Shown here: positions 1 through 15,212 of the stretch, piece by piece
How positions within the stretch are numbered: position 1 is the stretch's first letter
Layout: each line of letters begins with the position of its first letter
NCBI GenBank assembly: GCA_016839365.1
Contig: JAEOUH010000092.1
Location: 1-15,212, forward strand
Reading direction: 5' to 3'
DNA: 15,212 nt
Origin: Candidatus Hermodarchaeota archaeon
GTDB taxonomy: Archaea > Asgardarchaeota > Hermodarchaeia > Hermodarchaeales > Hermodarchaeaceae
Notes under the pieces: generated by a model
What the model saw: only the letters and a program-made list of their open reading frames with translations
What the model was told of the DNA's origin: nothing
The model's database searches: none
Program-made: the position numbers and the translations under genes

Positions 1-1
1 C

Positions 2-307
2 CAAGATGGATCCTTTGTCGAATCGAAACAGGAATCAAGCGGTATCCACTGTGAAGTAGACAAAACCGGTAAGAAAATCCGAATGATTGTGCCTCAAGGC
101 ACCAGCCTCATTGAACGACGAACAGCATTGCGACTGGCTGACACCGTTGCGCGGAGTGGATATCTATTATCAACCGGCGAACGCGTCGGACAAGGTTACG
201 AACTTGTTGTCGATGAAAAAGGCTCAGCAATACCAGATCGACTCAAACAAAGTCCAAGAGTCAGCTACAGCTCGGTTACAGTTGGCAGCGTCGTCGACAA
301 GAAGTAG
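2..307 (+). CDS. 5'-truncated hypothetical protein, putative single gelsolin-like domain
   Basis: Frame is open from base 2 (QDGSFVESKQESSGIHCEVDKTGKKIRMIVPQGTSLIERRTALRLADTVARSGY...), so the ATG at 83 is probably internal; ends TAG at 305-307. The strand-turn-strand then ER-x-x-AL-x-x-A helix pattern resembles gelsolin repeats. Product call is an inference. Confidence 0.5.
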   Translation, partial: QDGSFVESKQESSGIHCEVDKTGKKIRMIVPQGTSLIERRTALRLADTVARSGYLLSTGERVGQGYELVVDEKGSAIPDRLKQSPRVSYSSVTVGSVVDKK

Positions 308-392
308 GCCACACTCCGTGAAATGGTGAAGCGTTCCAAATATCAGATGAAAACAAGGCTGCAAGACATCCTGACCAGTTGAGGTGATTGAT

Positions 393-569
393 GTGAGCGA
401 AGAAGAAAGTAAAGGGGTCTCTTTGAGCGAGGAGCTGAAGCGCGAAATTAAGAGGGGCGCAAGTCTCGAACACGCACCAGAAGTCAAACCCAGAGAATTT
501 GACTTATCCGCTGAGAAAGCCCTCCTCGAAAAGCTCAGAGCAGAAGGGAAACTCGAAGAAGAGGAGTAA
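393..569 (+). CDS. Small charged protein (58 aa) with WH2/beta-thymosin (actobindin)-like motifs
   Basis: Strong SD GAGGTGA at 381-387, 5 nt before GTG at 393 (the ORF-track start at 384 lies inside the SD); TAA at 567-569, followed by an inverted repeat and a pyrimidine tract. Motifs ELKREIKRGASLEHA and EKALLEKLRAEGKL. Coding status well supported; WH2 function inferred. Confidence 0.6.
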   Translation: MSEEESKGVSLSEELKREIKRGASLEHAPEVKPREFDLSAEKALLEKLRAEGKLEEEE

Positions 570-610
570 CTCCTCCCCCTCGTCGATAAATCCCTCCCAT
601 TTTCTTTTCC
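561..610 (+). terminator. Putative terminator of the small ORF (inverted repeat over the stop codon plus T-rich tract)
   Basis: GAGGAG(561-566)-TAA-CTCCTC(570-575) perfect inverted repeat, followed by TTTTCTTTT at 600-608, between convergent genes. Confidence 0.45.
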
Positions 611-628
611 AAAACAACCAGCCCCACA

Positions 629-1513
629 CTATGTTGGGGACTTTCCTTTACTCAGGTTTTTAATAATCGGAAGATCTCGGTATTTTTGGATTCGTTGCAG
701 GATGTCAGCTCTGAGTTGCTGATAGACTGGTCCTGTACGAAGCACCCATTCAGAGAAATGCTCTGCCATTGCCTCGGGGCTCCAACGATGCTTTCCATCA
801 TCACTGGTCCATACAATTTCGAATGAATCACCTTTCTGTATGATTTCACCATGTGCCTGACAGAGTTGGCATTCGACCTGATTGGGCCCTCGAAACTGAA
901 AGAATATCGTTCCACATTGTGGGCAACCATGTTTGGGACTATCTAATGCGACTGTGTACTCAGGTTGGCGGATTTGGCGTACAAGCGTTTTGCCGATTTC
1001 CTGAGCCCGCTTCACTGTTGCTTCATCGAGGAGCACTTCTCCTGGACCTGGTCGATAGGCAACGAAGCGGTCAACAGGTTGAAGTCGTAATATTCCTGAA
1101 AGCATTGAAAGCATTGGTAAAGTAAAAGGATCCCAGTTTTGGAGCCCTGCCGTGGCGATGATAGCGCCAGGTCGCGTTGTCATCTGACTAATTTGCAGAC
1201 TGTATTCGAAGAGTCGGTCGATGAGAAGTTTGATTATTCCAGCAGGACCAAGAAAGTAGGTTGGGGCCGAGAGGATAATTGCATCAGCCCATTGGAAATG
1301 CTTCCACAAGACATGCATATCATCATCCAAGCGACACGATTCCCCCTTAAGTACGCAGGCTAGACACCCCTTACAAGGGAGTAGGTGAAAGTCGGATAAT
1401 CGGAGAGCCTGCACCTCCGCGTCTTCATTTTGAGCTTGCATTAAAGCCTCCTTGACTAAGACTTCGCAGTTTCCCAGTTTACGCGCAGAACCAATCACGC
1501 CAAGAACCTTCAT
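629..1513 (-). CDS. Flavodoxin-family (NADPH-dependent FMN reductase / iron-sulfur flavoprotein-like) protein with a C-terminal Cys4 zinc-ribbon extension
   Basis: MKVLGVIGSARKLGNC FMN-binding start; CKGCLACVLKGESC (CxxCxxCx6C) cluster motif; ADAIILSAPTYF and KLLIDR; C-terminal CPQC...CQLC. Start moved to ATG at 1513 (GGTG SD-like sequence upstream); ORF-track start is 1525. Confidence 0.85.
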   Translation of the reverse strand: MKVLGVIGSARKLGNCEVLVKEALMQAQNEDAEVQALRLSDFHLLPCKGCLACVLKGESCRLDDDMHVLWKHFQWADAIILSAPTYFLGPAGIIKLLIDRLFEYSLQISQMTTRPGAIIATAGLQNWDPFTLPMLSMLSGILRLQPVDRFVAYRPGPGEVLLDEATVKRAQEIGKTLVRQIRQPEYTVALDSPKHGCPQCGTIFFQFRGPNQVECQLCQAHGEIIQKGDSFEIVWTSDDGKHRWSPEAMAEHFSEWVLRTGPVYQQLRADILQRIQKYRDLPIIKNLSKGKSPT

Positions 1514-1601
1514 AGGATGCACCACAGGCTAATCTGATACTTAACCTTAAGAGTCTACAGCATCAGGAAAAACTCTCGGTTCCATTAGGCTGTTCGTGAA
1601 A

Positions 1602-1892
1602 CTAGTATGTAATCCGGAAGTCACGAAGGGTGGAATCAACCGGGACATTGATAATAGCGACATTGTCGACATGCGCCGATGGGGATCCATGATGGAGGAA
1701 ACGAATAAACTCTTCGATGACCTGATCTGCACCTTGGGCATGGCATTCGACGGTTCCATCCGGATTATTTCGCACCCATCCTACAAGACCGAGTTGATGT
1801 GCCTTGTCACGAGTATAGGCACGAAAGAAGACCCCTTGCACTCGACCGTGTACCAAAGCTTGTATCGCTCGCATTATCAATTCATGGCTCAA
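1602..1892 (-). CDS. acyP: Acylphosphatase
   Basis: VHGRVQGVFFR and GWVRNNPDGTVE signature motifs, HGSPSAHV, C-terminal FRITY. Start may instead be the ATG at 1874. Confidence 0.95.
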   Translation of the reverse strand: MSHELIMRAIQALVHGRVQGVFFRAYTRDKAHQLGLVGWVRNNPDGTVECHAQGADQVIEEFIRFLHHGSPSAHVDNVAIINVPVDSTLRDFRITY

Positions 1893-2005
1893 TATGTAAG
1901 TGCTACTCCTTAAGACATTTCATCGTTATAGATGATCGGAATTTGGAGGTTGGTTTAGGAATCCTTAAATCCGTCTACCCTATCAGCCACTCCGAGGAAT
2001 ACGCC

Positions 2006-2296
2006 ATGAGCCACACTAATCCCGATCCCAGCACCCAAAAAGAGCTTTCTAATATTCCGGGAAAAATCGGGCGAACTGACTATCGCGAATGGGTTAAAGT
2101 GTGTCCTCGCTGTTTTAGTCCCAACATCCAACCACTCACTAATATTTCAGGGACACTGATTCAAGAGCAATGGTACTGTTCTGAGTGTGGTTATGCTGGA
2201 GTCACTATAGAAGTAAAAACCGAGGACCTCATCCGATTCCGATTGCAGCAGTTGGCGAGGCTGTACAACAGAAATACAAAAGGAAGGTCCACTTAA
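2006..2296 (+). CDS. Small zinc-ribbon protein (96 aa), function unknown
   Basis: SD-like GAGGA at 1994-1998 before ATG at 2006; CPRC...WYCSECGY motif. The longer ORF-track version (1799) overlaps acyP and is rejected. Confidence 0.75.
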   Translation: MSHTNPDPSTQKELSNIPGKIGRTDYREWVKVCPRCFSPNIQPLTNISGTLIQEQWYCSECGYAGVTIEVKTEDLIRFRLQQLARLYNRNTKGRST

Positions 2297-2314
2297 CGGC
2301 CGATGAATTGATTC

Positions 2315-3187
2315 CTAAGCAACCTGTGGGAAGGCTACCTCTGCTGCAGCTCCCATTAGGGTCTTAAATAGTAGTTCCTTGTTACGAGGATCAATGGCGA
2401 CCAAGCCAATGGTTCGGAGTCCAAGTAGCCGGGCAACAGTATCAGGAAGGAGAGCATCTTTCAAGTCCTGCTTATTTGCAATTGCCCAGACTAAAGCACC
2501 ATCAGTCCATTTCTGAATTATCGGAATCAGTTTCCGAGTTGACATCACGTTCTTTAATGTCGAATCGGTGACCATTAACACAACATCTGTCCCACGGAGA
2601 TAATCTTTCCATTTTGGAACCAACAGTTCCTGACCAGGGAAGTCCCAAACGGCCAGTTCATAAGGGCCAAGCTTTGCCGTTTGCATCTCTTCTACGTACA
2701 CGGCCATTGTAGCTATATGATTGAGGTCGGCGCGTTGACTCATGAGCATTCTTAGGATTGTGCTTTTGCCCACACCGCCTTCGCCGAGAAGGACAATCTT
2801 GAGTGTAGACACAATGGCTTGATCGATGACAGGTCCAAGTCCTTGGAAAACTTGTGAATTCCTGTTACTTTTGAAATCCCAGATCTGTTTGGCGAATTTT
2901 TGCTTCATGGTCCGGACGGCGTTGTCGATTTTTTCTTGAAGTATTTCGTCTTTGTCTTGACGATCAGCGACCAAGACGAGGATGAGGTCCGAGTCGACAT
3001 ATTTATGGATGAATTTCATGCCATCCAAAAAGATGGGCACGGGGAGATCTTCGCCGGTGTCTCTTTCGAGCTGGCGGAGAGACTGTATATATTCAGAAAC
3101 GACTGGTTGGTCAATTTCAATTGCCCAGTATGAACGGTGGAAGAGTTTGATGCCGTTTCTGGTGATTAACAGGACGTTATGTATCAA
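2315..3187 (-). CDS. Longin-domain / Arf-like small GTPase fusion protein
   Basis: N-terminal ~125 aa longin-like (MIHNVLLITRNGIKLFHRSY...KFIHKY...LILVLVADRQD). C-terminal G-domain: G1 GEGGVGKS, G2 T in HIATM, G3 WDFPGQ, Arf-type WKDY, G4 ANKQD. Confidence 0.85.
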   Translation of the reverse strand: MIHNVLLITRNGIKLFHRSYWAIEIDQPVVSEYIQSLRQLERDTGEDLPVPIFLDGMKFIHKYVDSDLILVLVADRQDKDEILQEKIDNAVRTMKQKFAKQIWDFKSNRNSQVFQGLGPVIDQAIVSTLKIVLLGEGGVGKSTILRMLMSQRADLNHIATMAVYVEEMQTAKLGPYELAVWDFPGQELLVPKWKDYLRGTDVVLMVTDSTLKNVMSTRKLIPIIQKWTDGALVWAIANKQDLKDALLPDTVARLLGLRTIGLVAIDPRNKELLFKTLMGAAAEVAFPQVA

Positions 3188-3248
3188 CCGCGCTCGTCTC
3201 CCGGCTAGTATGTCCCACGGTTCTGGGTGTTGGATATTTGTTTTTGAG

Positions 3249-3256
3249 CTTTAAAA
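3249..3256 (-). promoter_or_regulatory. Putative TATA box for the longin-GTPase gene
   Basis: TTTTAAAG on the minus strand about 60 nt upstream of the TTG start at 3187. Confidence 0.35.
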
Positions 3257-3307
3257 TAGTTCTACCTAGAGGGGAGGAGTTCGTTTTGCATTAAACATTT
3301 CTAATTG

Positions 3308-3316
3308 ATAAAAAAG
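3308..3316 (-). terminator. Putative oligo-T terminator after the MttB-family gene
   Basis: CTTTTTTAT on the minus strand within 10 nt downstream of the TGA stop at 3326-3324. Confidence 0.4.
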
Positions 3317-3323
3317 ATCATTT

Positions 3324-4823
3324 TCAGCTTGGACCATGGGGTAGTGAGGAATTCTTATGACGCTTCATGAAGTTTTTCGCAATCGCATTCAAATCTTGAA
3401 GTTGTGAGTCGTCTAATTTGGGTACGTCGTGGGTGGTTAGAATCTCTTTGACACGCTCACGAGCACGGTCTAAACTGGTCAATGCTCCTTGGGATTGCCA
3501 GCTTTCAAATGGTTGGCGGTCGACTAATTTACCTGGCATATAGTGTTCTTTCCTGAACCAGGCTAGCGTATGACGTAAGCGGAGGAAATCTCCACCTTTT
3601 GTCCCGACTTCTCGGAGCTCATCTAGAGCAAGGGTGTCATCATTCACTTCAACGCCGGTGATGAACCGTTTCATCATCCCCGCAAGCATGTCGTCGATGA
3701 CAAGCTTCTCATAACTTTGGGTGCTTTCAAAAATAAGCATCCCTGCACCAGCGATATTGTTGATTCCTGCCATCGCCGCAAGAAGAAAACCGGTTGCTGC
3801 TTCATAGCCCACTTGTGCATCGGCACTAATTTTCGCATCTGAAAGGCCCATGTACCCGTGGGTTGGGAGGTTGTAATGTTTTGCTATCTGTGCATAGGCG
3901 CATGTGAGCATCATGCTTTCAATGGCTCCCAGCCGTGCTGTTCCATACTGCATATCGACAGCTGTAGGAGAGCCGCCATAAATTACCGGTGAACCTTTCT
4001 TTGCAAGTTGAGTGAGTACAACACCACTTAGCGACTCAGCATTATGCAATACCAAAGACCCAGCGATTGTAATCGGACCGGTTGCTCCGAGTTGGGGCAT
4101 TGAAATAAGTTCAATTGGAATTCCGGCAGCCGCACCGAGTAGGAGATCATGAACTGTCAGTTCACTCCACTGTAATGGAGCAGATGGACATGTATCAAAG
4201 ATGGCACGTGGTTTGTCTCGGAGCTTCTTGGGTCCCCCTGCTATGACTTCAAGCATTTGCTTCATATCGTCAAAGGCGTCAAGTGCAAAGGTGCCGGTTA
4301 TGATGGGTTTTGTTGAGTGCTGTAGGAGTAGGTATAGCCGGTAGCGATCCGCGAGGAGTGGAGGTACATCTGCTGGGATGAGGGCCGTGCTTTGAGCGTC
4401 GATGAATGGTAACGCATCAGTGACTCGGGCGAAGTCGATAACATCTTTGACGGTTGGATGCCGTCGCGCACCGGTTTCTCGGTCCAGAATATGCGTTGCA
4501 GCCGAGCCTGGATTGAATTGGATTTGATTTCCTTCAAGGAGAACAGCGGGATGCCCTTCACGATCAAATAGCTGGATTGAGGATGGTGCATGTTTTATTT
4601 GCTCTTCAACGAGTGAAGAGGGGAAATAGGCATGCTCCTTGTCAAAATTAACTGAGGCTCCGGCTTCTTTGAGGAGTTCTAATGCGTCACGGCTTTGGAT
4701 TTTCATTCCAACTTCCTCAAGGAGAGAGAGGCTTTCTGAGTGAATTTGCTGAATCTCCTGCTCCGAGAGCATCTTCAATTGGGGTCTTTGTGTCAATGTC
4801 TCTTGTCTCCGATGTTGTTTCAT
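3324..4823 (-). CDS. Trimethylamine methyltransferase (MttB) superfamily, non-pyrrolysine member (methylated/quaternary amine:corrinoid methyltransferase)
   Basis: LSEQEIQQIH..SL.LLEEVG start, GATGPITIAGSLVLHNAESLSG, GSPVIYG, GLSDAK..DAQ.GYE, GAGML...SYEKLVID; no in-frame TAG. Its ATG overlaps the stop codon of the corrinoid gene (ATGA, 4820-4823). Confidence 0.92.
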   Translation of the reverse strand: MKQHRRQETLTQRPQLKMLSEQEIQQIHSESLSLLEEVGMKIQSRDALELLKEAGASVNFDKEHAYFPSSLVEEQIKHAPSSIQLFDREGHPAVLLEGNQIQFNPGSAATHILDRETGARRHPTVKDVIDFARVTDALPFIDAQSTALIPADVPPLLADRYRLYLLLQHSTKPIITGTFALDAFDDMKQMLEVIAGGPKKLRDKPRAIFDTCPSAPLQWSELTVHDLLLGAAAGIPIELISMPQLGATGPITIAGSLVLHNAESLSGVVLTQLAKKGSPVIYGGSPTAVDMQYGTARLGAIESMMLTCAYAQIAKHYNLPTHGYMGLSDAKISADAQVGYEAATGFLLAAMAGINNIAGAGMLIFESTQSYEKLVIDDMLAGMMKRFITGVEVNDDTLALDELREVGTKGGDFLRLRHTLAWFRKEHYMPGKLVDRQPFESWQSQGALTSLDRARERVKEILTTHDVPKLDDSQLQDLNAIAKNFMKRHKNSSLPHGPS

Positions 4824-5473
4824 CCTTCTGTCGCGCCTGTCAACCGTTTTGCGATTTTCACTGCTTGATTAAAATCAACACCGTAACCATCAGCACCAAT
4901 GCTGTCTGCGAAATCTTGGCTGACTGGTGCTCCACCCACCATGATTTTTACCCGTTGATCAAGTTTTTCCGTTTTTAATAGCTCAATGGTTTCTTGCATC
5001 CGGTCCATAGTCGTGGTCAATAACGCAGACATCGCAATAATATCCGCGTTGACTTCCCTGGCTTTGGAGACGAACTGAGCTGGTGTCACCTCAACACCTA
5101 AATCATACACGGTAAATCCCGCCACCGTTAGCATGGTCGCCACAATTGATTTTCCGATATCATGGATATCCCCTTGCACCGTACCTATCACGATAGTACC
5201 CAGGGCATCCTCGTCTTGAGATTTAGCCAGATGGGGTTCAAGGAATTCAAGGGCCTGTTTCATCGTTTCCGCGGCTACTGCGAGTTCTGGCAAGTAGGCT
5301 TCGCCTTTTTCAAATCGATCACCTAACACTCGAATACCTGCCGTAAGCCCTTGGTTGACAATAGTAGTTGCATCAATTCCTTGATCAATGGCCTTCGGAA
5401 CAAGGTTGAGAACTCGTTCAGTCTGACAATTAATCATCTCTTCACGAATTTCATCAATAATTTCATTTCCCAT
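4820..5473 (-). CDS. Methyltransferase cognate corrinoid protein (MttC/MtbC family)
   Basis: N-terminal helical cap (GDRFEKGEAYLPEL); B12-binding GTVQGDIHDIGK (DxHxxG), SALLTTT, MVGGAPV. Confidence 0.95.
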   Translation of the reverse strand: MGNEIIDEIREEMINCQTERVLNLVPKAIDQGIDATTIVNQGLTAGIRVLGDRFEKGEAYLPELAVAAETMKQALEFLEPHLAKSQDEDALGTIVIGTVQGDIHDIGKSIVATMLTVAGFTVYDLGVEVTPAQFVSKAREVNADIIAMSALLTTTMDRMQETIELLKTEKLDQRVKIMVGGAPVSQDFADSIGADGYGVDFNQAVKIAKRLTGATEG

Positions 5474-5507
5474 ACAGTATCCACCTTATCTCATTGGTAC
5501 TGTTGTG

Positions 5508-6554
5508 TTACTCAATGATTTCCCAATTACGCTGGTATTTGTCAAGTTCAGTTTTGGTTCGTGCATCCATAGGGTGTTCTCTATCTGGGATGTCCAGAGC
5601 TTTTGGTTCACCACACAACGGAGTGCTGAAGTAGCGTTGTCCACTGTCATTAATCATGGTCACAATCGTTTTGAGTTCAGGGTGTCGCTTTGCTAGTTTC
5701 AGAGCTGCGGCAACATTACACCCTGACGAGATTCCACAAAAGAGTCCTTCTTCGCGGCTGAGCCATTGAGCCATTTCTAGAGCTTCATCTGAGGTTGTAG
5801 TAATGATTCCATCTAACATGCTCAAATCGAGATTCAAGGGCACAAATCCATCGCCAATGCCTTCGATGTGGTGAGATCCCCATTTTCGATGTGCGAGAAG
5901 GGGCGCTTCCGTAGGCTCAATGGCATAAAGCTTCACCTTTGGATTCTTCTCACGCAAGAATCGTCCCACGCCTGTTATCGTTCCCCCAGTGCCTTGGCTA
6001 GCGATGAACGCATCCACGTTTCCAGCAGTCTGTTCCCATATTTCTTGACCTGTCGTTTCATAATGGGCAAGAGGATTATCTGGATTGCTGAACTGTGCGG
6101 GTTCCCAATATTTTCCTGGATTCTGCTCTTTTAGTTCCTTAGCTTTCTTTAGACACAAGTCCACATCAGATTCCCCACCCGGAGTGAGGATAATCTTAGC
6201 GCCATACGCCGCCATGAGTTTTCGACGTTCTTGACTCATCCCTTCGGGCATGATTATGGTCACGGGGTAGTTCAACATCCGACCAACAAAGGAACAGGCA
6301 ATACCGGCATTTCCCGTTGACGACTCGATGATCTCCATACCTGGTTTTAAGTCTGCACGGGCAATGGCTTCGTGGATCATCTTGTAGTAGATACGGTCCT
6401 TCAGGCTCCCTGTGGGTGAATACCATTCGATTTTTCCTAGGATATTGACTCCCGCCTGCTTGCTAATCTTTGGCAAGCGCAACAATGGCGTTAGACCAAT
6501 GAGGTCAAAGACATTCTCTTGGACCTGCTTGTATTTTTCCCAGTTTAAGGGCAC
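5508..6554 (-). CDS. cysK: Cysteine synthase family PLP-dependent enzyme (CysK/CysM/CBS-like)
   Basis: IGLTPLLRL, PTGSLKDR (PLP lysine), ESSTGNAG, GTGGT phosphate loop, HHIEGIG, GISSG, DSGQRYFS. Start set at GTG 6554 because AGGAG (6564-6568) lies 9 nt upstream; the ORF-track TTG at 6563 abuts that SD. Confidence 0.9.
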   Translation of the reverse strand: MPLNWEKYKQVQENVFDLIGLTPLLRLPKISKQAGVNILGKIEWYSPTGSLKDRIYYKMIHEAIARADLKPGMEIIESSTGNAGIACSFVGRMLNYPVTIIMPEGMSQERRKLMAAYGAKIILTPGGESDVDLCLKKAKELKEQNPGKYWEPAQFSNPDNPLAHYETTGQEIWEQTAGNVDAFIASQGTGGTITGVGRFLREKNPKVKLYAIEPTEAPLLAHRKWGSHHIEGIGDGFVPLNLDLSMLDGIITTTSDEALEMAQWLSREEGLFCGISSGCNVAAALKLAKRHPELKTIVTMINDSGQRYFSTPLCGEPKALDIPDREHPMDARTKTELDKYQRNWEIIE

Positions 6555-6597
6555 AATAAACAACTCCTAACAAATCAGTCGCAGCATAGTCTAGCCC

Positions 6598-6607
6598 GTA
6601 TATAAGC
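6598..6607. promoter_or_regulatory. Putative TATA element in the divergent cysK/sfsA intergenic region
   Basis: GTATATAAGC reads TATATAA on + and TTATATA on -, about 45 nt upstream of the cysK start. Confidence 0.5.
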
Positions 6608-6691
6608 ATACAGCTTCGTGGGATGCACGAGGCGAAGAATCATAAAGGAACAAGACAGGGCAAAGAGAAAAGACCAGCAGGAGCCCTTTCT

Positions 6692-7411
6692 GTGAAACTT
6701 CAAGGACCCTTTCATTACGGAAATTTTCTCGAACGTCCCAATCGATTTCTCACTATCTGCCAACTCAACCGAAAACGTGTTCAAGCTTACATCCCCAATC
6801 CAGGGCCTATGCCTGATTTACTCTTTCCTGGGGTCGAGGTCCTTCTTCGACACAACCCTGGTGTTCACAGGAAAACAGATTACGATTTGGTCTGTTCCCG
6901 TAGCCAAGGGGTTCTGCTCTCTCTCGATTCCCGTGTTCCCAACTGGATTCTAGCCGAAGCGCTTCCAAAAGGTCAACTACCCCCGTTTTTACAGTATAGT
7001 GAATTCATCGCTGAACCCCAATACCGTGAGAGCCGTCTCGACTTTCTTCTACACTCAGAGGGTGTCTCCTCATGCTATATTGAAGCAAAATCCTCGACTG
7101 ACGCTGTGGACAAAATCGGTTTATTTCCCCGTGTTCCAACCGAACGTGGACAACGACATCTTCGGGAGCTGATGCAAGCCGTTGATGAGGGGTATCGCGC
7201 AGCCATTGTATTCATTGTTCAGCGCACTGATGCTACTAGGCTGCGACCGAATGACCTTGTCGATCCGGAGTTTGGAACAATCTTACGCAAAGCCGTCAAG
7301 CATGGTGTTGAAGCCTACGCGTGGACTACACGCTTTGACGAATTAAGTCACGAGATCGTCATTGATCAGTCCATTCCCGTCGACCTGACTCCGCCCAGCC
7401 ATGCAGACTAG
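6692..7411 (+). CDS. sfsA: Sugar fermentation stimulation protein A (SfsA; OB-fold plus PD-(D/E)xK nuclease)
   Basis: FLERPNRF, IPNPG.M..LL.PG, RKTDYDL, SRLDFLL, YIEAKS, FP..PTERGQRHLREL, FIVQR, DPEF. Start set at GTG 6692 with AGGAG at 6679-6683; ORF-track ATG is 6623. Confidence 0.92.
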   Translation: MKLQGPFHYGNFLERPNRFLTICQLNRKRVQAYIPNPGPMPDLLFPGVEVLLRHNPGVHRKTDYDLVCSRSQGVLLSLDSRVPNWILAEALPKGQLPPFLQYSEFIAEPQYRESRLDFLLHSEGVSSCYIEAKSSTDAVDKIGLFPRVPTERGQRHLRELMQAVDEGYRAAIVFIVQRTDATRLRPNDLVDPEFGTILRKAVKHGVEAYAWTTRFDELSHEIVIDQSIPVDLTPPSHAD

Positions 7412-8482
7412 CTAGCTGAATTGTCCATATTTTTCAGCTGCTGCTACCATAGCCCGGATATTGTTAAGAGGAGTTAACGGTGGCACCTCACAACCGCTAC
7501 TCAGGATAAAACGCCCATCTTGACCGACTGTTTCAATGCACCACTTTGCAGCGGCTTCCACCTCAGCTGGTGTTCCATTCAAGAGAAGTTCGGTTGGATT
7601 TAGGTTTCCCATTAAAATCACCTGTTGCCCGATGTGCTCTTGAGCCTCTTGCATATCCACAAGATGATCGAGTTCCAATATTTGTACCTCTGTGCTTGCC
7701 ATCTGGTCTAATATCATAGCTGTTTTTCCGCAAATATGCAGTGAAGCAATACTTCCTACCCGGGTAACTGCCTTAGCGATTTGAGTAAGATGAGGGGCTG
7801 CAAAGGTGGCAAATGTCTTTGGGCTGATGAGGCTACCGCTTGCCGTAGGATCTGCTGTTACAATGACATTAACACCTGCTTCAACGTTGGCTAGAGCATA
7901 CCGCATGGACGCTTTAGTGGTCAGACTGAGGAGGGTGCTAACAAATTCGGGGTTGCGAATCGTTGCTACCATTAAAGCATTGACACCTGCAAGCTGCCCA
8001 GCCAAGGTGAAAGGGCCGGGCGTATAGGCAAAGAGCGGCACGTCACAATTGACCGCATCTTTCACAAGTTTCACCATTTCCATGTGGAGAGGTAAACGCC
8101 CGGAGCTATGGGGATCTGGTATCGCCACCTTATCGATATCGTTTGGGGACTTGACGATATGATCCGCCACTTGTGGAACTGAATCTTTGGGGAACCGCAT
8201 CGTACATCCCATCGCCTCGGCTAACAAATTAAACGAACTTTCCCATCCCACATAGATGGCGTCATATCCGAGTTCACGTTGCCCAGCCAAAAGCGCTTCT
8301 GCAGTCTTTTCAGGGCTATGGAGGGCTTCCACTAAGCCAACTCCAGTTATCTGCGCGGTCGTATAGGTGATTTGTGGAATAACGGGAACGCGATCTGGCT
8401 GCTCTCCACGAAGTAGGCTCATAACACGTTGAAAGGGAGTAAGTGAAGGCATTTGTTCGCTTCCACAGTTTTTTGATTCCAT
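7412..8482 (-). CDS. MtaA/CmuA-family methylcobamide:thiol methyltransferase (UROD superfamily)
   Basis: LTPFQRV..LLRGEQPDRVPV start, EAMGC, PGPFTLA, DPTASGSLISP, zinc ligands LHICG and SSGCEVP, GNLNP. Start may be the ATG at 8452. Confidence 0.85.
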   Translation of the reverse strand: MESKNCGSEQMPSLTPFQRVMSLLRGEQPDRVPVIPQITYTTAQITGVGLVEALHSPEKTAEALLAGQRELGYDAIYVGWESSFNLLAEAMGCTMRFPKDSVPQVADHIVKSPNDIDKVAIPDPHSSGRLPLHMEMVKLVKDAVNCDVPLFAYTPGPFTLAGQLAGVNALMVATIRNPEFVSTLLSLTTKASMRYALANVEAGVNVIVTADPTASGSLISPKTFATFAAPHLTQIAKAVTRVGSIASLHICGKTAMILDQMASTEVQILELDHLVDMQEAQEHIGQQVILMGNLNPTELLLNGTPAEVEAAAKWCIETVGQDGRFILSSGCEVPPLTPLNNIRAMVAAAEKYGQFS

Positions 8483-8569
8483 CTAGGTATCTTGAGTTCA
8501 TACTAGCTTTTGCTTGTTTATTTTCGTTTGCTACAGGTGGAAAAAACCATCCATGCCTAAGGCAGCATC

Positions 8570-8576
8570 TTTAAAT
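8570..8576 (+). promoter_or_regulatory. Putative TATA box upstream of tfb
   Basis: TTTAAAT in the divergent intergenic region between the methyltransferase gene and tfb. Confidence 0.35.
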
Positions 8577-8656
8577 GACAAATATCCACAGTTTGGGTGG
8601 GGAATGTGTCTTCCCCCACGCGCGTGCCGGATAGGCTGGGTTCGGATCCGATACCT

Positions 8657-9613
8657 ATGTCTGAAAACAATCGACGGAAGGCTCAACCAGATACAACTCC
8701 TTCAGAGGACGAACCACAAACCTGTCCCAACTGTGGAAGCAATCACCTTATTATGACATCCTCGCGTGAACTTGTCTGCTCCAATTGTGGTCTCGTAATT
8801 AGCGATGATGTCCTCGATTTTGGAGCCGAATGGCGTGAATTCTCGCCCGAAGAACGTGATAAACGAGCCCGTGCTGGACCTCCCTCTACGCTCACAATGC
8901 ACGACCGTGGACTCTCCACAACCATCGATTGGCGAGATGTGGATGCACGAGGACATAAACTCGATGCCCATCGGCGAGCGGAAATGCAACGTATCCGTAA
9001 ATGGCACAACCGCAGCCGCGTCTACCAAGCCAGTGAACGGAACCTCGCAAGTGCCATGAGTGAACTTGACCGCTTATCGGGGCAATTGGACCTGCCCCAA
9101 CGAGTCCGACAGTCAGCTGCTCTTCTTTATCGACGAGCCCTAGATAAGAATCTCATTCGTGGACGCAGCATTGAAGCTATTGTTGCGGCGTGTGTCTATG
9201 CTGCCTGTCGTTTCACCAGCTTCCCTCGAACCCTAGCCGATGTCGGACGATATACACGGGTTGGACGAAAGGAACTGGGTAGATCATATCGACTCATTGT
9301 CCGACGACTGGGCCTCCAAATGCCAATCACCCAACCTGAGGATTTCGTTTCACGCTATACCAATGCCCTCAAACTCTCCCAACGCACCCATGCCCGAGCC
9401 CTTGATATTCTCATGAAAGCTCGGACCAAGGGCATCACCTCAGGCAAGGACCCCACTTGCATCGCCGCCGCAGCCATTTATATTGCCTCGATTCTGGAAG
9501 GTGAACGCCGAACCCAACGTGAAATTAGCGAAGTCGCTGGAGTCACCGAAGTCACCGTGCGGAACAGGTACAAAGAACTTGTTCGGGCTTTTGATCTTGG
9601 GGTCGAAGTTTAG
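8657..9613 (+). CDS. tfb: Transcription initiation factor IIB (TFB)
   Basis: Zn ribbon CPNCG...VCSNCGLV, B-reader EWREF...RARAGPP, HDRGLST.I, ERNL, LIRGRSIEA, PRTL, RRTQREISEVAGVTEVTVRNRYKEL. Start uncertain (ATG 8657 or GTG 8597). Confidence 0.96.
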   Translation: MSENNRRKAQPDTTPSEDEPQTCPNCGSNHLIMTSSRELVCSNCGLVISDDVLDFGAEWREFSPEERDKRARAGPPSTLTMHDRGLSTTIDWRDVDARGHKLDAHRRAEMQRIRKWHNRSRVYQASERNLASAMSELDRLSGQLDLPQRVRQSAALLYRRALDKNLIRGRSIEAIVAACVYAACRFTSFPRTLADVGRYTRVGRKELGRSYRLIVRRLGLQMPITQPEDFVSRYTNALKLSQRTHARALDILMKARTKGITSGKDPTCIAAAAIYIASILEGERRTQREISEVAGVTEVTVRNRYKELVRAFDLGVEV

Positions 9614-9747
9614 ATTCACGCAAACCGAGTTTCCTAATCATTCAGTCTAGACAAAGCTACTTAAAGTCACATTCCTGAGTGTATGGAAGGTTTCCAGCTG
9701 AGGCGTTTTAATGCCTTAAGCTAGTTTTACATTTGGAAGCGGTCATT

Positions 9748-11712
9748 GTGAAACGATTATCATTACTATCCGGGCTTTTCTGCATGGCGGTCATCTTTGC
9801 CCTTCTTAGCAATCCCGTTACCGCTGAAGCAATCTCCGGTTCAACGAATATCAATAAAACAGTCCACTCAACTTCGATATTAACAACCACTCCTCAACGA
9901 AATCCCGTTCCAATACTCGCACCACCATCTCCTGCAGGAGAATATGTTGTAATTATCGTAGAGACTGGGCTGTGGGGTTTGACGGCAATTCAGAATGCCG
10001 TGAATACCTATCGAATGGACTTAAACAATACCGGATATAACACAATCCTCTATACTAGCACCATTGCCAACGCCCCTGCGCTACGTACATTGTTGCAAAA
10101 CTGGTTCTCGACAAATAACATCATTGGTGCAGTGCTCATCGGCAACCTCCCCTATATCCGGTTCTATCATCCAGCGAACACCTCTGGTCAAAGTGGCGGT
10201 CAAGGTACATATGGGGCTGATACCTTCGTATGTGATCTTTATTATATGGACCTAGATGGTAATTGGTTCGATACAAATACCGACACCATCTATGATGTCC
10301 ACAACGCATCTTCAGGGGCTGATATTTTTCCTGAAATCTACGTTGGTCGTATTGATGCCACCAACCGTGTATTAGGAAGTCAAACCAACGCCAATGATAT
10401 TATCACTGTACTTAACAGAATCCACTCCTATCGGGTTGGTGGTGTGGCACGGACGCATCGAGCGCTAACCTACATAGATGACGATTGGCAATTATGGGCT
10501 GATGGGACATATGATAATTGGCCTGCTTGGCTCAATAATGCCTATCCGACTCGTACTGATGTCCATACCCCCGCAACTTGGACTAATGCCACCGATTGGC
10601 TCAATAATCGGATAAACCAAGACTATGAATGGGCTCATCTTTGTGCCCATAGTGGAGCCTCTCCTGGTACTCACTATTTCGGTCCAGGGGGCTCAGGTGA
10701 AGGCACAGTCACGTCCACACAAATCCACAACCAAGTTCCCACTTTTAACTTCTATAACCTCTTTTGTTGCCATGGGGCTGATTGGATTACCACCGACGAC
10801 CTGGCCACCACCTACCTGTTTTCTGGTAGTCATTCACTTGCTGTCGTTGGAACGACCAAAACCGGAGGAATGCTAGAAGGATCAAGCTTCTATAATGCGC
10901 TAGGTCAGAATGAAACGCTTGGAAAAGCCTTAGGGACTTGGTTCCAAGGCATTAAAAGCTACGCGTATTATTGGCTTGAATGGTTCTATGGCATGACAAT
11001 CCTGGGAGATCCGTTCCTCACCACCCACTATGATATCACCGCACTTGCTCCTACAATTTCCTCCTCGACACATCCAACTCAATCCCAGTGGTCAACTAAT
11101 CCAACCCCTCAATTCAACTGGACCATCCCCGTTGATGTGAACGGTATTGCAGGTTACTATTATATCATTGACCAAAATCCGACCACCATCCCTACTGCTG
11201 CAACAGGGACCTATACAACAATTAACGGAACCCTCTCCTCAACGCCTTTAGCTGATGGAACTTGGTATCTCCACGTTGTTAGCAAAGATAATGTTGGCAA
11301 TGTTGGATCGGAAGCCGCACATTATCAAGTAAACGTCGATGCAACAAATCCAACTGTCACCATCACGTCACCTACTACTGGTAGTTTTGTTTCAACCACA
11401 TTTGATCTTGTCTGGACAGTTACTGAAACTGGTTCTGGTTATAGTACAGCTGACATCTATGTGAACACTTCACTATTCACAACCATCAGTGCACCTCTCT
11501 CCAACACCACCATCACTGATCTCATAACAGGCACATACGTGATCAATGTCACGGTCTTCGACGTTTCAGGGCTCAGTGGGTCACATCAAATCACTGTCAT
11601 CGTCTTACCTCTCCTACCGCCAGGAATTCCGGGATTCCCATTTGAGGCAATTGCATTAGGAGCCATCCTTGCGGTCAGCCTTGGGGTCTTATATAGACGA
11701 CGTCGACGCTAG
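9748..11712 (+). CDS. Secreted, membrane-anchored peptidase C25 (gingipain)-like protein with Ig-like domains
   Basis: Signal peptide (KRLSLLSGLFCMAVIFALLSNPVTA); C25-like motifs VLIGNLP, DLYYMDLDGNW, PEIYVGRI, candidate dyad CAHS / LFCCH, AVVGTT, ILGDP; Thr-rich beta-sandwich region (LADGTWYLHV..KDNVGN; D.TNPTVTITSP); C-terminal IPGF-TM-RRRRR. Start GTG 9748 or TTG 9733. Confidence 0.75.
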   Translation: MKRLSLLSGLFCMAVIFALLSNPVTAEAISGSTNINKTVHSTSILTTTPQRNPVPILAPPSPAGEYVVIIVETGLWGLTAIQNAVNTYRMDLNNTGYNTILYTSTIANAPALRTLLQNWFSTNNIIGAVLIGNLPYIRFYHPANTSGQSGGQGTYGADTFVCDLYYMDLDGNWFDTNTDTIYDVHNASSGADIFPEIYVGRIDATNRVLGSQTNANDIITVLNRIHSYRVGGVARTHRALTYIDDDWQLWADGTYDNWPAWLNNAYPTRTDVHTPATWTNATDWLNNRINQDYEWAHLCAHSGASPGTHYFGPGGSGEGTVTSTQIHNQVPTFNFYNLFCCHGADWITTDDLATTYLFSGSHSLAVVGTTKTGGMLEGSSFYNALGQNETLGKALGTWFQGIKSYAYYWLEWFYGMTILGDPFLTTHYDITALAPTISSSTHPTQSQWSTNPTPQFNWTIPVDVNGIAGYYYIIDQNPTTIPTAATGTYTTINGTLSSTPLADGTWYLHVVSKDNVGNVGSEAAHYQVNVDATNPTVTITSPTTGSFVSTTFDLVWTVTETGSGYSTADIYVNTSLFTTISAPLSNTTITDLITGTYVINVTVFDVSGLSGSHQITVIVLPLLPPGIPGFPFEAIALGAILAVSLGVLYRRRRR

Positions 11713-11725
11713 AAAAACACAATCT

Positions 11726-11759
11726 GGACGCGTTACAGCGTCCCCCTCTTTCCTTTTTT
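11726..11759 (+). terminator. Hairpin plus T-tract terminator between convergent genes
   Basis: GGACGC(11726-11731)-GTTACA-GCGTCC(11738-11743) stem-loop followed by CCCTCTTTCCTTTTTT. Confidence 0.55.
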
Positions 11760-12534
11760 AACGCTTCACCGAGTTATTGAGTGTCACTTCACATCGCTTG
11801 AAAAGCTGATCGATGTTCTGGGCAAATAGGTGGCTTGGACTCACCTGGACCAGGATTTGCCGGCTTCCCAACTCGATTAACCGGGTAAAGAGGGGCACGA
11901 CCGTGGCCACTTCAAAGCCATACTCTTGCTCGATGTCTTTTTTCACTTTATCAAAATCATAAATGCCAGGAACTTTATTGCATACGATATAAGTGGACGG
12001 TACCCCAAGTTTCCTCGCCAAGGCTAGGGTAATTGCTGTACCCAGAAAGTCCTGTTGGTCAAGACGCATGATAACAAACAACAAGTCTGTCGTAGCAATG
12101 GACAGGAGGGTTTCTTGATCTAATCCTGGATGTGTGTCAATGAAGAGATAATCCAGTTGCTTTGCCTGCATAATTTGCTTAAAGCCTTGACGAAGGTCTG
12201 CCACCTCATAGCCTTCGCGAATAATGGTGGATATATCATCGGCGTTGAGACTCGCTGGAATGATGTGCAAGTTACCAGCCTTCAGTCTCATAGCTTTGGT
12301 GTGGTCGATAGTAGCTTTTTCGATGGTGCACTTCTTTCGGAGATAGTCATTCAGAGTATATTTGAACCGTTCTCCGCCTAAACCAAAGAGGACGTGTAAT
12401 CCAGGGCTTTGAATATCTGTGTCCATCACGCCGATGTTTCGACCTTTCATTGCCGCGTAGGTGGCAAGATTGGCTGTCAGATTGCTTTTTCCGGTACCCC
12501 CTCTGAAGCTGTGAACGGTGACAATTTTACCCAT
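11758..12534 (-). CDS. MinD/ParA-family ATPase (RGGTGKS subtype)
   Basis: IVTVHSFRGGTGKS deviant Walker A, MDTDIQSPGL (A'), HIIPAS, LFIDTHPGL (Walker B), VCNKVP, VVP. Confidence 0.9.
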   Translation of the reverse strand: MGKIVTVHSFRGGTGKSNLTANLATYAAMKGRNIGVMDTDIQSPGLHVLFGLGGERFKYTLNDYLRKKCTIEKATIDHTKAMRLKAGNLHIIPASLNADDISTIIREGYEVADLRQGFKQIMQAKQLDYLFIDTHPGLDQETLLSIATTDLLFVIMRLDQQDFLGTAITLALARKLGVPSTYIVCNKVPGIYDFDKVKKDIEQEYGFEVATVVPLFTRLIELGSRQILVQVSPSHLFAQNIDQLFKRCEVTLNNSVKR

Positions 12535-12633
12535 TACAGTATCCGCCTTAGTATTGACATCCCTGTAGTTCTCGGAATCGGATTCTTTAGTTCTTGATTC
12601 GAGGTTAGAATTTTGCGTTATTAAAGCATTGGT

Positions 12634-13902
12634 TTAAGTCAACCATTCGATGTTTGCCCCCAGTTTTCGCAACACCGCGATAAGCTTCTCTTCGTCCACA
12701 CCAATGCGTCGGGCGATATCACTTGAGGTATTGTTCCCATCACAATAGGATTTGGCGTCTTCTAAGATTTTGTATTCATCACGGGGGAGTCCAACGGTTT
12801 CCAGATAGGCGAGGAACCTCCGGTCGCTGGCGACAAGTTTCGGGTAAAATTGAACTCGTCGGATGTATCCCCGTGTAGAGAGGTAGCTGAGAATTTCCGA
12901 TAATTGCCGTCCATGGACTCCGGTTCGAATCCGAATTTCTTCCACCGTTGAGATCCCGTCAACAGCTTGAAGGACATCACGGCCTGCTTTGCCAAATAAA
13001 TTATCAAATTCTCGGGCTTGTCCTGTGCTTTCAGCAAAGAGGGTACTTTCCATCATGGGATTAGAAGCGAAGACATCAAATTCTGAGAAGGTTTCAGTAA
13101 TTAATGTTTTAGGCTGAACTTTTACCATACTCGAATAGTCAATATTGCTAAGACCATAAACTAGCGGTGATATCATTTCTGCACATCGACCGACCTTCAT
13201 ATCTTCACGGATTATCACCAGCAAAACCAAATCTGGTTTAAGGTGATGAACGAAGAGTTTAGTGCCTTCTTCCAGAGTAGTTTGAGATACAGCAAAATAA
13301 CTTGGCAGCTCCATGTTTCGGGATTGATGGATTTGGCGTGAACCAACTTCAAACTCGTGTTGTGATAACTTTGAGGCAATTACAAATCCATCCTGAGTAA
13401 GCAATGCAGCTCGCAAAATGCCACGTTGTCCCTCAATAATATTGAGTAGTTCTTCGATTCGCTCAAGGTTTTCAGGAGGAATAATCGCTGTGGGATAGCG
13501 TTGCTGGATTTCGGGTATCTTATCATATTTTTTTAGAATCTCCATGACATATTCGCGGAATCCAATAAACAGGTGAGATGAAAGGACTGATTGCTGTAAA
13601 ACATGACCATATTGCTTTTCAAAAGCTTGGGCAATTTCTTTGATGATTAATCGGTAGATGTTCTCATCATCAGCTTCACCAATCGCAATGATGAAAAGCA
13701 GATCCGCCTGGCTCTCATAAACAAACTTGTTCTCAGCGAAGGTGACGACCCTTATCTGCCCTTCACCAATTTCTTCAGCAAATCCTGCCTGTGCTGAAAG
13801 AAAGCCTGCGACGAGGGCATCAAGCTTCGGAGCTCCATCGGGAGCAAAATTAAACAAGGGCATACCGCCCTTCCGAAGAACAATAATCTCTCTAACAGGC
13901 AA
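12634..13902 (-). CDS. Multidomain longin + roadblock-like + tandem winged-helix protein
   Basis: SD GGTGA (13909-13913) 6 nt before TTG. Approx. aa 1-125 longin (IIVLRKGGMPLF...LVAGFLSA..FAEEI...KFVY...LLFIIAI); approx. aa 145-250 roadblock-like (GILRAALLTQDGFVIAS...DLVLLVII); two C-terminal wHTH-like units (VLQAVDGISTVEEI...LSYLSTRGYI; YCDGNNTSSDIARRIG). Confidence 0.75.
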   Translation of the reverse strand: MPVREIIVLRKGGMPLFNFAPDGAPKLDALVAGFLSAQAGFAEEIGEGQIRVVTFAENKFVYESQADLLFIIAIGEADDENIYRLIIKEIAQAFEKQYGHVLQQSVLSSHLFIGFREYVMEILKKYDKIPEIQQRYPTAIIPPENLERIEELLNIIEGQRGILRAALLTQDGFVIASKLSQHEFEVGSRQIHQSRNMELPSYFAVSQTTLEEGTKLFVHHLKPDLVLLVIIREDMKVGRCAEMISPLVYGLSNIDYSSMVKVQPKTLITETFSEFDVFASNPMMESTLFAESTGQAREFDNLFGKAGRDVLQAVDGISTVEEIRIRTGVHGRQLSEILSYLSTRGYIRRVQFYPKLVASDRRFLAYLETVGLPRDEYKILEDAKSYCDGNNTSSDIARRIGVDEEKLIAVLRKLGANIEWLT

Positions 13903-13985
13903 AGGGTGTCACCAGGAATTAACCATTAGTAAAACCGCGCGTTGATTAACCTTTGTATTGTTAAAATCACTTCTCCATTGAAACC

Positions 13986-13993
13986 CTTATAAT
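13986..13993 (+). promoter_or_regulatory. Putative TATA box in the divergent region upstream of the MFS-like gene
   Basis: CTTATAAT about 55 nt upstream of the ATG at 14049. Confidence 0.35.
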
Positions 13994-14048
13994 CCCTTCC
14001 CACTATTGTTCACCCCCATCTTGTATTGCATCTGTGGAGAACAATGCG

Positions 14049-15212
14049 ATGAAACGTGACAAAAATTGGGCTATATCAGCGATCCTTGCTCTCCCCTTTG
14101 CTTGGGTCATCGCGTTTCTCTTATTCATGCATCCAGTTTTTCTATCTGATCCGGTTCTTCTTCTCCCAGTGATAATCGGATTATTCCTCGGCCTCCTAGT
14201 CGGGGGCTTTATTGCAGACAAACTGCCTGGACGAAACCTTCTCCTTGTTCTCTTTCATGTAATGATTCTGGTTATCGGAATCGCACAATGGATACTTCCA
14301 ACAGGATTTTGGAACTCCTTATTCGGTCAGCTTCTGCTTGCCTTTCTCCTTTTCCTGTTCGGCAGCGATCTTGTACTCTTCACTGTTTTTCTCAACCGAT
14401 TAGTATCTAGTGTGAATCGTGAAAGAGTCGTAGCTATTACGACTGCAGTCAGTCTTTTTTTCTCGGGTCTCTTTCTGTTCTCATGGAAATTTTTTGGCGG
14501 AACAAATTTCGCTCCTACGGTTACAGCCGGACTGATTCTCTTCAGTCTACTGGTCGTGTTTTTCATTCAACCGTGGAAGGGAGAACTACAAACTTATTTG
14601 GTTCCAGGTTTTATCCGACCCTATGCAGCCTGGTGGGTCATCTACTTAGCCGCGTTCGGGTTGTATGTCTGGGCGACACGACTCGAATATCGTCATTTGT
14701 TCAATGGCTTATTTTACAACGCACCAGAACTTCTTCCTCCAGAACTTGTTTTGATGGGCTTTTGTGGAGCCGCCCTCCTTTTTGCCCTAGTACCTTATAG
14801 ATTTGGAAGAAAAGTCGTGTTCAACATCGGCACACTTCTTTTGGGCTTACTCTGCATCTTTGGGGGCGCTCATGAGGAATTGTTGATTGCCGATACTGTT
14901 TCCATCGTCTTATCAATCTTATCGGCTTTTGTTGTTGCTTTCATAATTGGAGTGGGGGCCTGGCTCGTCTGGGCTGAAATTGGATCAGTTCGGATGAAAG
15001 GCCGTCGCGCTGCATTTGGATGGTTGATGGTAGGGTGTCTTATTGGGATTATTTGGTGCATTACTGTATTCTCATCCTACTCATTGACTCCGTTGCTTGT
15101 ATACCCCATTGCGGCTTCTCTGGTACTAATCAGCATATTTCCATTGACAAACGCCCGAGAGGTAATATGGAATGAACGCCTCGTTGAGGACATCGATGTA
15201 AGTGTGGACAGC
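14049..15212 (+). CDS. 3'-truncated MFS-like polytopic membrane protein
   Basis: Translated by hand: open from ATG 14049 (GGAG at 14036-14039) to the window end, 388 codons, MKRDKNWAISAILALPFAW...; about 12 hydrophobic segments; motif-A-like GGFIADKLPGR and its second-half echo LVPYRFGRK; WAEIGSVRMKGR. Absent from the ORF track because there is no stop codon in the window. Confidence 0.8.
   Translation, partial: MKRDKNWAISAILALPFAWVIAFLLFMHPVFLSDPVLLLPVIIGLFLGLLVGGFIADKLPGRNLLLVLFHVMILVIGIAQWILPTGFWNSLFGQLLLAFLLFLFGSDLVLFTVFLNRLVSSVNRERVVAITTAVSLFFSGLFLFSWKFFGGTNFAPTVTAGLILFSLLVVFFIQPWKGELQTYLVPGFIRPYAAWWVIYLAAFGLYVWATRLEYRHLFNGLFYNAPELLPPELVLMGFCGAALLFALVPYRFGRKVVFNIGTLLLGLLCIFGGAHEELLIADTVSIVLSILSAFVVAFIIGVGAWLVWAEIGSVRMKGRRAAFGWLMVGCLIGIIWCITVFSSYSLTPLLVYPIAASLVLISIFPLTNAREVIWNERLVEDIDVSVDS

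Follow-up and report, generated by a model that had tools for sequence, protein, structure and literature searches.

A constrained 58-residue Asgard microprotein with a WH2-like N-terminal module, encoded beside a gene of predicted gelsolin fold

A 58-residue open reading frame near the start of a contig from Candidatus Hermodarchaeota archaeon raises the question of whether an Asgard archaeon encodes a free peptide that handles actin monomers in the manner of the WH2 and beta-thymosin peptides of eukaryotes. The window analysed here comprises 15,212 nt (contig JAEOUH010000092.1, positions 1 to 15,212), and a sequence-only reading of it had described the frame as a stand-alone WH2/actobindin-like microprotein, small enough for annotation to miss. 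The Asgard actin regulators described in the literature fall into two classes, profilins and gelsolins, both of which have been assayed on rabbit actin, and, bacterial effectors aside, peptides of the WH2 and thymosin kinds are regarded as eukaryotic. In the accessible parts of the literature on Asgard actin, WH2 is mentioned only as a four-residue gelsolin linker or in reference lists, and no description of a free WH2-like archaeal peptide was found in that literature. A free archaeal peptide carrying a WH2 helix would, if genuine, add a third class to these regulators and bear on the origin of eukaryotic actin-monomer control; were it not to bind actin, there would still be a strongly constrained, nameless microprotein family with a conserved partner gene. 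New in this study are statistical evidence that connects the Hermod- and Loki-type modules, a fold test of the neighbouring gene, distribution counts and an analysis of selection.

The host is an Asgard archaeon, as had been supposed from the letters: the contigs of relatives are titled as Hermodarchaeota/Promethearchaeota MAGs, and the window contains TFIIB, an Arf-like GTPase with a longin-like N-terminus and an MttB/corrinoid set. Actin, whose presence in the host the sequence-only reading had named as a condition of its proposal, is encoded in the genome by a gene whose product scores 382 bits against PF00022 and is approximately 60% identical to animal actins. Two further actin-fold genes, one profilin and two two-domain gelsolins accompany it, the linkers of the latter being the canonical LKKV and LKRI.

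The frame at 393-569 is a real gene, encoding a 58-residue protein under strong purifying selection in Hermod-type Asgard archaea. It opens with GTG at 393 and closes with TAA at 567-569, and public gene calls do contain it, albeit namelessly, so the expectation that annotation would miss it was mistaken. In a six-frame search, one ortholog without internal stop was recovered from each of the genomes of the genus (14/14) and of its sister genus (4/4), and nothing credible from 42 further genomes of this phylum. Among the orthologs, GTG, ATG or TTG serves as start codon at an identical position, downstream of a GGTGA that is kept 4-7 nt ahead of the start in 19/19 loci, while pS (0.67, synonymous sites being near saturation) far exceeds pN (0.12), corresponding to a pN/pS of 0.185. 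Stop-free orthologs in 18/18 genomes, start-codon turnover behind a conserved GGTGA and the excess of pS over pN together place the frame beyond chance. The near-perfect Shine-Dalgarno sequence and the terminator-like signals that had been noticed around the frame were both found where expected (Table 1); the T-tract and hairpin are common to the 3' end of a convergent FMN-reductase gene, and T-tracts lie 3' of the stop codon in nearly all microprotein orthologs. The conserved intergenic motif listed in Table 1, perhaps a promoter or processing element serving the microprotein gene, lies at the equivalent place in most orthologous loci of the first genus and, in a weaker form, in the sister genus. 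No Rfam family was found in the window.

The encoded protein is, as first read, poor in hydrophobic residues (ILVMFWY account for 13/58 positions, with a single aromatic) and is acidic, with a pI of 4.9 and a net charge of approximately -6. Its AF2 monomer model contains helices at residues 6-20 and 39-50 and no compact fold (pTM 0.32), and the 18-residue stretch and second helix singled out beforehand do begin at nt 432 (residue 14) and nt 513 (residue 41), respectively. When 1.84 billion representative proteins were searched with a profile, only four relatives emerged, of 57-67 aa, two of which are more diverged and without the motif Gly. The best explanation of these features is a translated, largely unfolded, lineage-specific acidic protein. 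A longer Hermod relative, 109 aa on an 857-nt contig, is probably a chimera and was set aside, as were another longer match, attributed to chance, and the weak whole-protein matches in larger ORFs, of which the one inspected, a thioredoxin-reductase-like ORF, was noise.

Table 1. Positions of the microprotein gene, its modules and flanking features within the window
Feature	Position (nt)	Strand	Description
Upstream gene	2..307	+	5' end lost at contig start; full length 107 aa in relatives
Conserved intergenic motif, ~20 nt	312..331	+	Directly after the stop codon of the upstream gelsolin-fold gene
Shine-Dalgarno GAGGTGAT	381..388	+	4-5 nt upstream of GTG start
Microprotein gene	393..569	+	58 aa, acidic; two predicted helices with a flexible linker between
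N-module, residues 10-34	420..494	+	Amphipathic helix, Gly, Leu, then extended stretch; WH2-like part
C-module, residues 37-58	501..566	+	Near-invariant amphipathic helix plus acidic tail
T-tract (600-608) and hairpin (622-639), then T-rich run	600..639		Terminator-like

Concerning the WH2 likeness, this resides in the N-module, where hydrophobic residues at -4 and 0 are followed by Gly at +3, Leu at +6 and an extended stretch, which is the arrangement of helix, Gly and Leu by which WH2 is recognised. The first predicted helix stops just ahead of G22, and the second is predicted about 10 residues past the tetrapeptide (AF2). Residues E14, L15, I19 and L25 do not vary; G22 is kept in 19/19 genomes but gives way to Lys in two metagenomic sublineages, and the pN/pS of the module is 0.16. 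The skeleton L-x3-[ILVM]-x2-G-x2-L-x-[KRH]-[AVT] occurs four times in the 884,000 ORF residues of the genome, that is, at about 3e-4 per 58 aa. Conservation of this motif, which the sequence-only reading had put forward as a check across Asgard genomes, was borne out for L15, I19, G22 and L25 within the family; it did not hold for the His, which varies as [HS], nor for G22 in the two sublineages with Lys. In the window the tetrapeptide itself reads LEHA, and the family as a whole has L-[EDAQS]-[HS]-[AVT] where the basic LKKT/LKKV type would be expected of a WH2; the reservation voiced earlier about an acidic LEHA was justified, the tetrapeptide being neither basic nor conserved. The hexapeptide LEHAPE, with Glu at the position of actobindin Lys16, likewise departs from that of thymosin and actobindin.

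A match to curated profiles, which the sequence-only reading had looked to for confirmation, did not materialise: Pfam WH2 (PF02205) and Thymosin (PF01290) matched neither the microprotein nor its 19 orthologs at E-values up to 10, and a six-frame scan of the genome with both profiles gave matches elsewhere (WH2 at 9.3 bits) and none at the microprotein ORF. No WH2 match exceeded the cut-off in any of 201 Asgard genomes (0/201). When the whole-protein profile was compared with solved structures, the tandem WH2 of N-WASP appeared at E 0.27, ranking below chance matches, one of which was the C-terminus of ATP synthase alpha (E 0.13); a profile of the Hermod N-half only retrieved no WH2 from the same structures.

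The N-module does have relatives elsewhere among the Asgard archaea. On its own, the Hermod N-module profile retrieved 52-58-aa ORFs in another Asgard family (best E 1.2e-5, a 57-aa frame), and a joint profile gave a single small ORF in each of 117/135, 4/4 and 18/18 genomes from three families; across 400 genomes, its sole other match was weak and lay in an ORF of 500 aa belonging to a fourth family. By hhalign, the Hermod microprotein matched the ~50-aa Loki-type microprotein at 87.9% (E 3.2e-6) over residues 10-34, and the two are collinear over their full length with 27-32% identity; a reverse search with the full Loki-type profile missed Hermod at E 0.001. Judged by these profile alignments, the N-half of the microprotein is a diverged copy of an Asgard peptide module. 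Further architectures of the Loki-type module are tandem arrays of about ten units, found in proteins 494 and 500 aa long, and fusions in which it follows either LRR domains or a profilin-like domain, the latter scoring E 2e-4 and 1e-3 against Pfam Profilin, short of the cut-off. The LRR proteins bear it C-terminally (loci L185 and L186), a fusion that would tie the module to a protein-interaction scaffold. The Loki-type microprotein genes lie between a GNAT acetyltransferase gene and pelota and not beside actin genes. A canonical LKKV tetrapeptide was present in one array unit and in a single distant relative that stands alone.

Comparison of the module with solved structures depended on the composition of the profile. 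With array units included, these having been hand-picked by pattern, the top three matches were N-WASP (E 0.011), N-WASP (E 0.097) and VopL (E 0.5); without them, N-WASP at E 0.037 was the best natural protein, under two designed repeat proteins, and a profile of stand-alone proteins only placed LSm2 first and the WH2 of MIM next at E 1.2. All of the WH2 alignments (N-WASP, VopL and MIM) fell in the exact register expected. At the level of these alignments, the likeness of the module to solved WH2 peptides is suggestive, the E-values being marginal and not significant.

With WH2 (PF02205; N-WASP, MIM, VopL) the microprotein has in common a short unfolded module of equal helix, Gly, Leu and extended-stretch skeleton, and relatives of the Asgard module occur free, in tandem arrays and beside profilin-type domains. 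WH2 and thymosin units are known in the same settings, namely free, in tandem and alongside profilin-linked machinery. It differs from WH2 in failing the curated profile, in having LEHA or a variable tetrapeptide in place of the basic LKKT/V, in possessing a conserved C-terminal helix and acidic tail for which WH2 offers no counterpart, and in its archaeal host. With beta-thymosin and actobindin (PF01290) it shares the layout of a free 40-90-aa peptide in which an N-helix, a tetrapeptide, a linker of about 10 residues and a second helix succeed one another. The helix-to-Leu spacing of thymosin beta-4 differs from that of WH2, and in this respect the microprotein is of the WH2 type. Its L-x-H-A resembles the LKHAET found at residues 15-20 of actobindin, where Lys16 cross-links to actin (PMC2132640), whereas the microprotein family has Glu, Asp, Ala, Gln or Ser in place of the cross-linking Lys.

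An acidic tetrapeptide is not disqualifying per se, because the two-domain gelsolins of Asgard archaea carry WH2-like four-residue linkers (LRRV, LKHV, LVDV and LKDV) and the acidic residue of LVDV in the Loki gelsolin contacts actin via a bridging Ca2+ (PMC9433394; bioRxiv 2025.11.30.690169). Those linkers lie inside a folded multi-domain protein and lack a preceding WH2 helix, whereas the microprotein is a free peptide with such a helix. Arcadin-2 of Pyrobaculum is another short archaeal peptide and is mentioned as depolymerising the actin homologue of its host (PMC12050087); its target is crenactin and its phylum a different one. The suggestion that the second helix might be a WH2 of the WASP type was not upheld, as the resemblance amounts to 5-6 letters, the Gly is displaced by one position, and acidic residues occupy the segment that is basic in WH2. 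The wider assignment to a thymosin/actobindin/WH2-like class survives in part: the skeleton, the homologous Asgard module and the in-register WH2 matches speak for it, and the curated profiles and the missing basic tetrapeptide against it. We consider the microprotein a good, if unproven, candidate for a peptide that works like WH2 or beta-thymosin, and not a profile-level member of either family.

The gene upstream of the microprotein encodes a single basic domain (pI 9.4, net charge +3.5) with a predicted gelsolin/ProGel-like fold. Its AF2 model is moderately confident (pLDDT 65) and, when compared with 48,161 chains by VIA-align, was closest to Thorarchaeota ProGel (7c2f; Z 8.6, rmsd 2.9 over 76 residues); ranks 2-19 also belong to the gelsolin family (gelsolin, villin, adseverin, fragmin, severin and Asgard gelsolin; three are hybrid or complex chains). 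Foldseek likewise placed 7c2f_B first (prob 1.00, E 0.013) in a list dominated by gelsolins. In fusions from other lineages, the domain follows two Pfam Gelsolin repeats or precedes a long acidic GelX-type region. The gelsolin assignment derives from this predicted fold and from the fusions, since sequence-level searches gave none: there was no Pfam or NCBIfam match, including the Gelsolin repeat PF00626, no similarity to ProGel or any other gelsolin in the PDB, and an hhalign value of 0.25% between the upstream family and two-domain gelsolins of the host type. The family is present in 123/201 Asgard genomes. Thorarchaeota ProGel and 1DGelX are its closest known counterparts, and its predicted single gelsolin/cofilin-type fold is that of ProGel; Asgard gelsolin-fold domains gain activity via added C-terminal segments (PMC7444086), the difference here being that the putative added segment is a separate gene.

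Some further observations were made on this family and its relatives. The tail P-[DE]-R-L-K-x-S-P-R-x-x-Y is strongly conserved and is longer in Hermod (2-307 in the window; L024:8438-8758), its L-K-x-S occupying the place of the WH2-like FKHV in gelsolin domain 1. Three-domain Asgard gelsolins combine two Pfam Gelsolin repeats, an FLKHV linker, a Pro-rich spacer and a ProGel-like domain (loci L097-L101, L105 and L106), and GelX-type proteins possess a very long acidic E/V-rich repeat region (L102-L104). A different Asgard family invariably has, about 100 nt after its gelsolin-fold gene, a gene for a protein of more than 470 aa that combines a SNAP/TPR-like N-terminus with a membrane segment and a CARDB-like domain (L086-L095), a pairing that may link actin regulation to the membrane. 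A search of the present genome with a query from that family did not find this membrane protein, and homology of the microprotein to its N-terminus was rejected (hhalign 0.5%).

The gelsolin-fold gene ends 85 nt upstream of the microprotein gene, and the gap measures 58-122 nt across loci. The pair is present in 4/4 sublineages, comprising both genera and two sublineages known from metagenomes only, in one of which it is intact despite a transposon inserted nearby; there, a resolvase and a TnpB (Cas12f-like) gene lie between the FMN-reductase and acylphosphatase genes (L127:5169-7218; L129:1323-3372). Adjacency by itself is weak evidence, since this narrow clade conserves gene order across the entire neighbourhood. 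In 20 genomes from about ten other families, neither a similar small ORF nor a WH2-type skeleton was found within 2 kb of the gelsolin-fold gene.

From these data we propose that the N-helix of the microprotein would bind actin in the fashion of WH2, and that the microprotein would cooperate with the gelsolin-fold protein, whether by acting on one and the same actin or by passing monomers on. We judge the chances of actin binding by this putative WH2-like helix to be evenly balanced. In its favour are the existence of a real and constrained gene whose conserved N-half positions are those of the WH2 skeleton, rare in this genome; the homology of the module, its tandem arrays and profilin-like fusions, and the in-register matches to N-WASP, VopL and MIM; and the gelsolin-fold neighbour, a monomer layout resembling thymosin, and a host with eukaryote-like actin, profilin and gelsolins. 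Against it stand the absence of Pfam WH2 and Thymosin matches, the marginal PDB E-values, a non-basic and variable tetrapeptide in a host whose own gelsolins have canonical linkers, the Lys at G22 in two sublineages, a C-module that the reading leaves unexplained, and Loki-type genes that are not beside actin genes. A broader interpretation, which we offer tentatively and consider more doubtful than probable, is that a WH2-type actin-monomer module is native to Asgard archaea and predates the split between Hermod and Loki, that Hermod possesses a two-gene regulator consisting of a gelsolin domain plus WH2, and that such peptides form a third class and a possible ancestor of eukaryotic WH2 and thymosin.

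It may instead be that the microprotein is a small acidic helical protein unrelated to actin, with a WH2 likeness acquired by convergence and a gene order that is inherited synteny, an explanation that we regard as unlikely. No curated profile backs membership of WH2 or thymosin, the PDB E-values lie near 0.01-1, with designed repeat proteins and LSm2 equalling or outscoring WH2, the Loki-type genes adjoin pelota and an acetyltransferase, and the gelsolin adjacency within one family is no better conserved than the rest of the locus. Against this explanation, four separate features hint at actin: a neighbouring gene of gelsolin fold, fusion to profilin-like domains, occurrence in tandem arrays, and the fact that solved WH2 peptides, aligned in register, lead the natural proteins among the PDB matches. 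The skeleton is, moreover, rare in this genome.

The C-module is not explained by the WH2 reading. It is the most constrained part of the protein, the C-terminal 22 residues having a pN/pS of 0.055, with invariant columns from D37 to K53 and a pLDDT of about 90 at residues 41-50 (AF2), and the C-halves of the Hermod and Loki-type relatives had no detectable relation by alignment or hhalign. Inspected by eye, it did not qualify as a second WH2, an RPEL, MIM1 or SAP motif or an EEVD-type tail, the spacing being wrong or the residues unconserved. Its helix and acidic tail might provide another contact site, either for actin or for the basic protein of gelsolin fold. Taken further, the latter possibility would have the microprotein act with, or regulate, the gelsolin-fold protein encoded upstream and not actin, the acidic C-terminus docking on the basic domain, in the way that charged tails and X domains are appended to other Asgard gelsolins, and the WH2 likeness being secondary, which in our estimation is quite unlikely. 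The charges of the two proteins (net -6 against +3.5) are complementary, the C-module is specific to the lineage in which the gelsolin-fold gene is adjacent, the pair is kept in all sublineages, and other Asgard gelsolin-fold proteins have charged extensions in cis (PMC7444086, PMC9433394). Conversely, no fusion of the two genes was found among the 1.84 billion representatives or in the search for longer relatives, and the N-module is common to relatives that have no gelsolin neighbour. That 393-569 is a chance open frame and not a gene, for which its small size alone might argue, is virtually impossible given 18/18 genomes without stops, start-codon turnover behind a conserved ribosome-binding site and a pN/pS of 0.19.

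The genome and window around the proposed actin-binding microprotein afforded some minor observations. The main actin gene (C21:30609-31622) is cut by a contig end here and in several relatives, which suggests that assemblies break at actin, perhaps via paralogs or strain variants; a full-length actin of the host type (L049:1474-2616) shares 99% identity with the truncated copy. The two further actin-fold genes are arranged in tandem (C71:16486-18636). The Arf-family GTPase of the window (2315-3187), with an N-terminal domain resembling longin and the clathrin-adaptor sigma subunit, is kept in the genus and is absent from the equivalent locus in the sister genus. Weak longin, roadblock and winged-helix matches were obtained at 12634-13902, upstream of a MinD/ParA-type ATPase (11758-12534).
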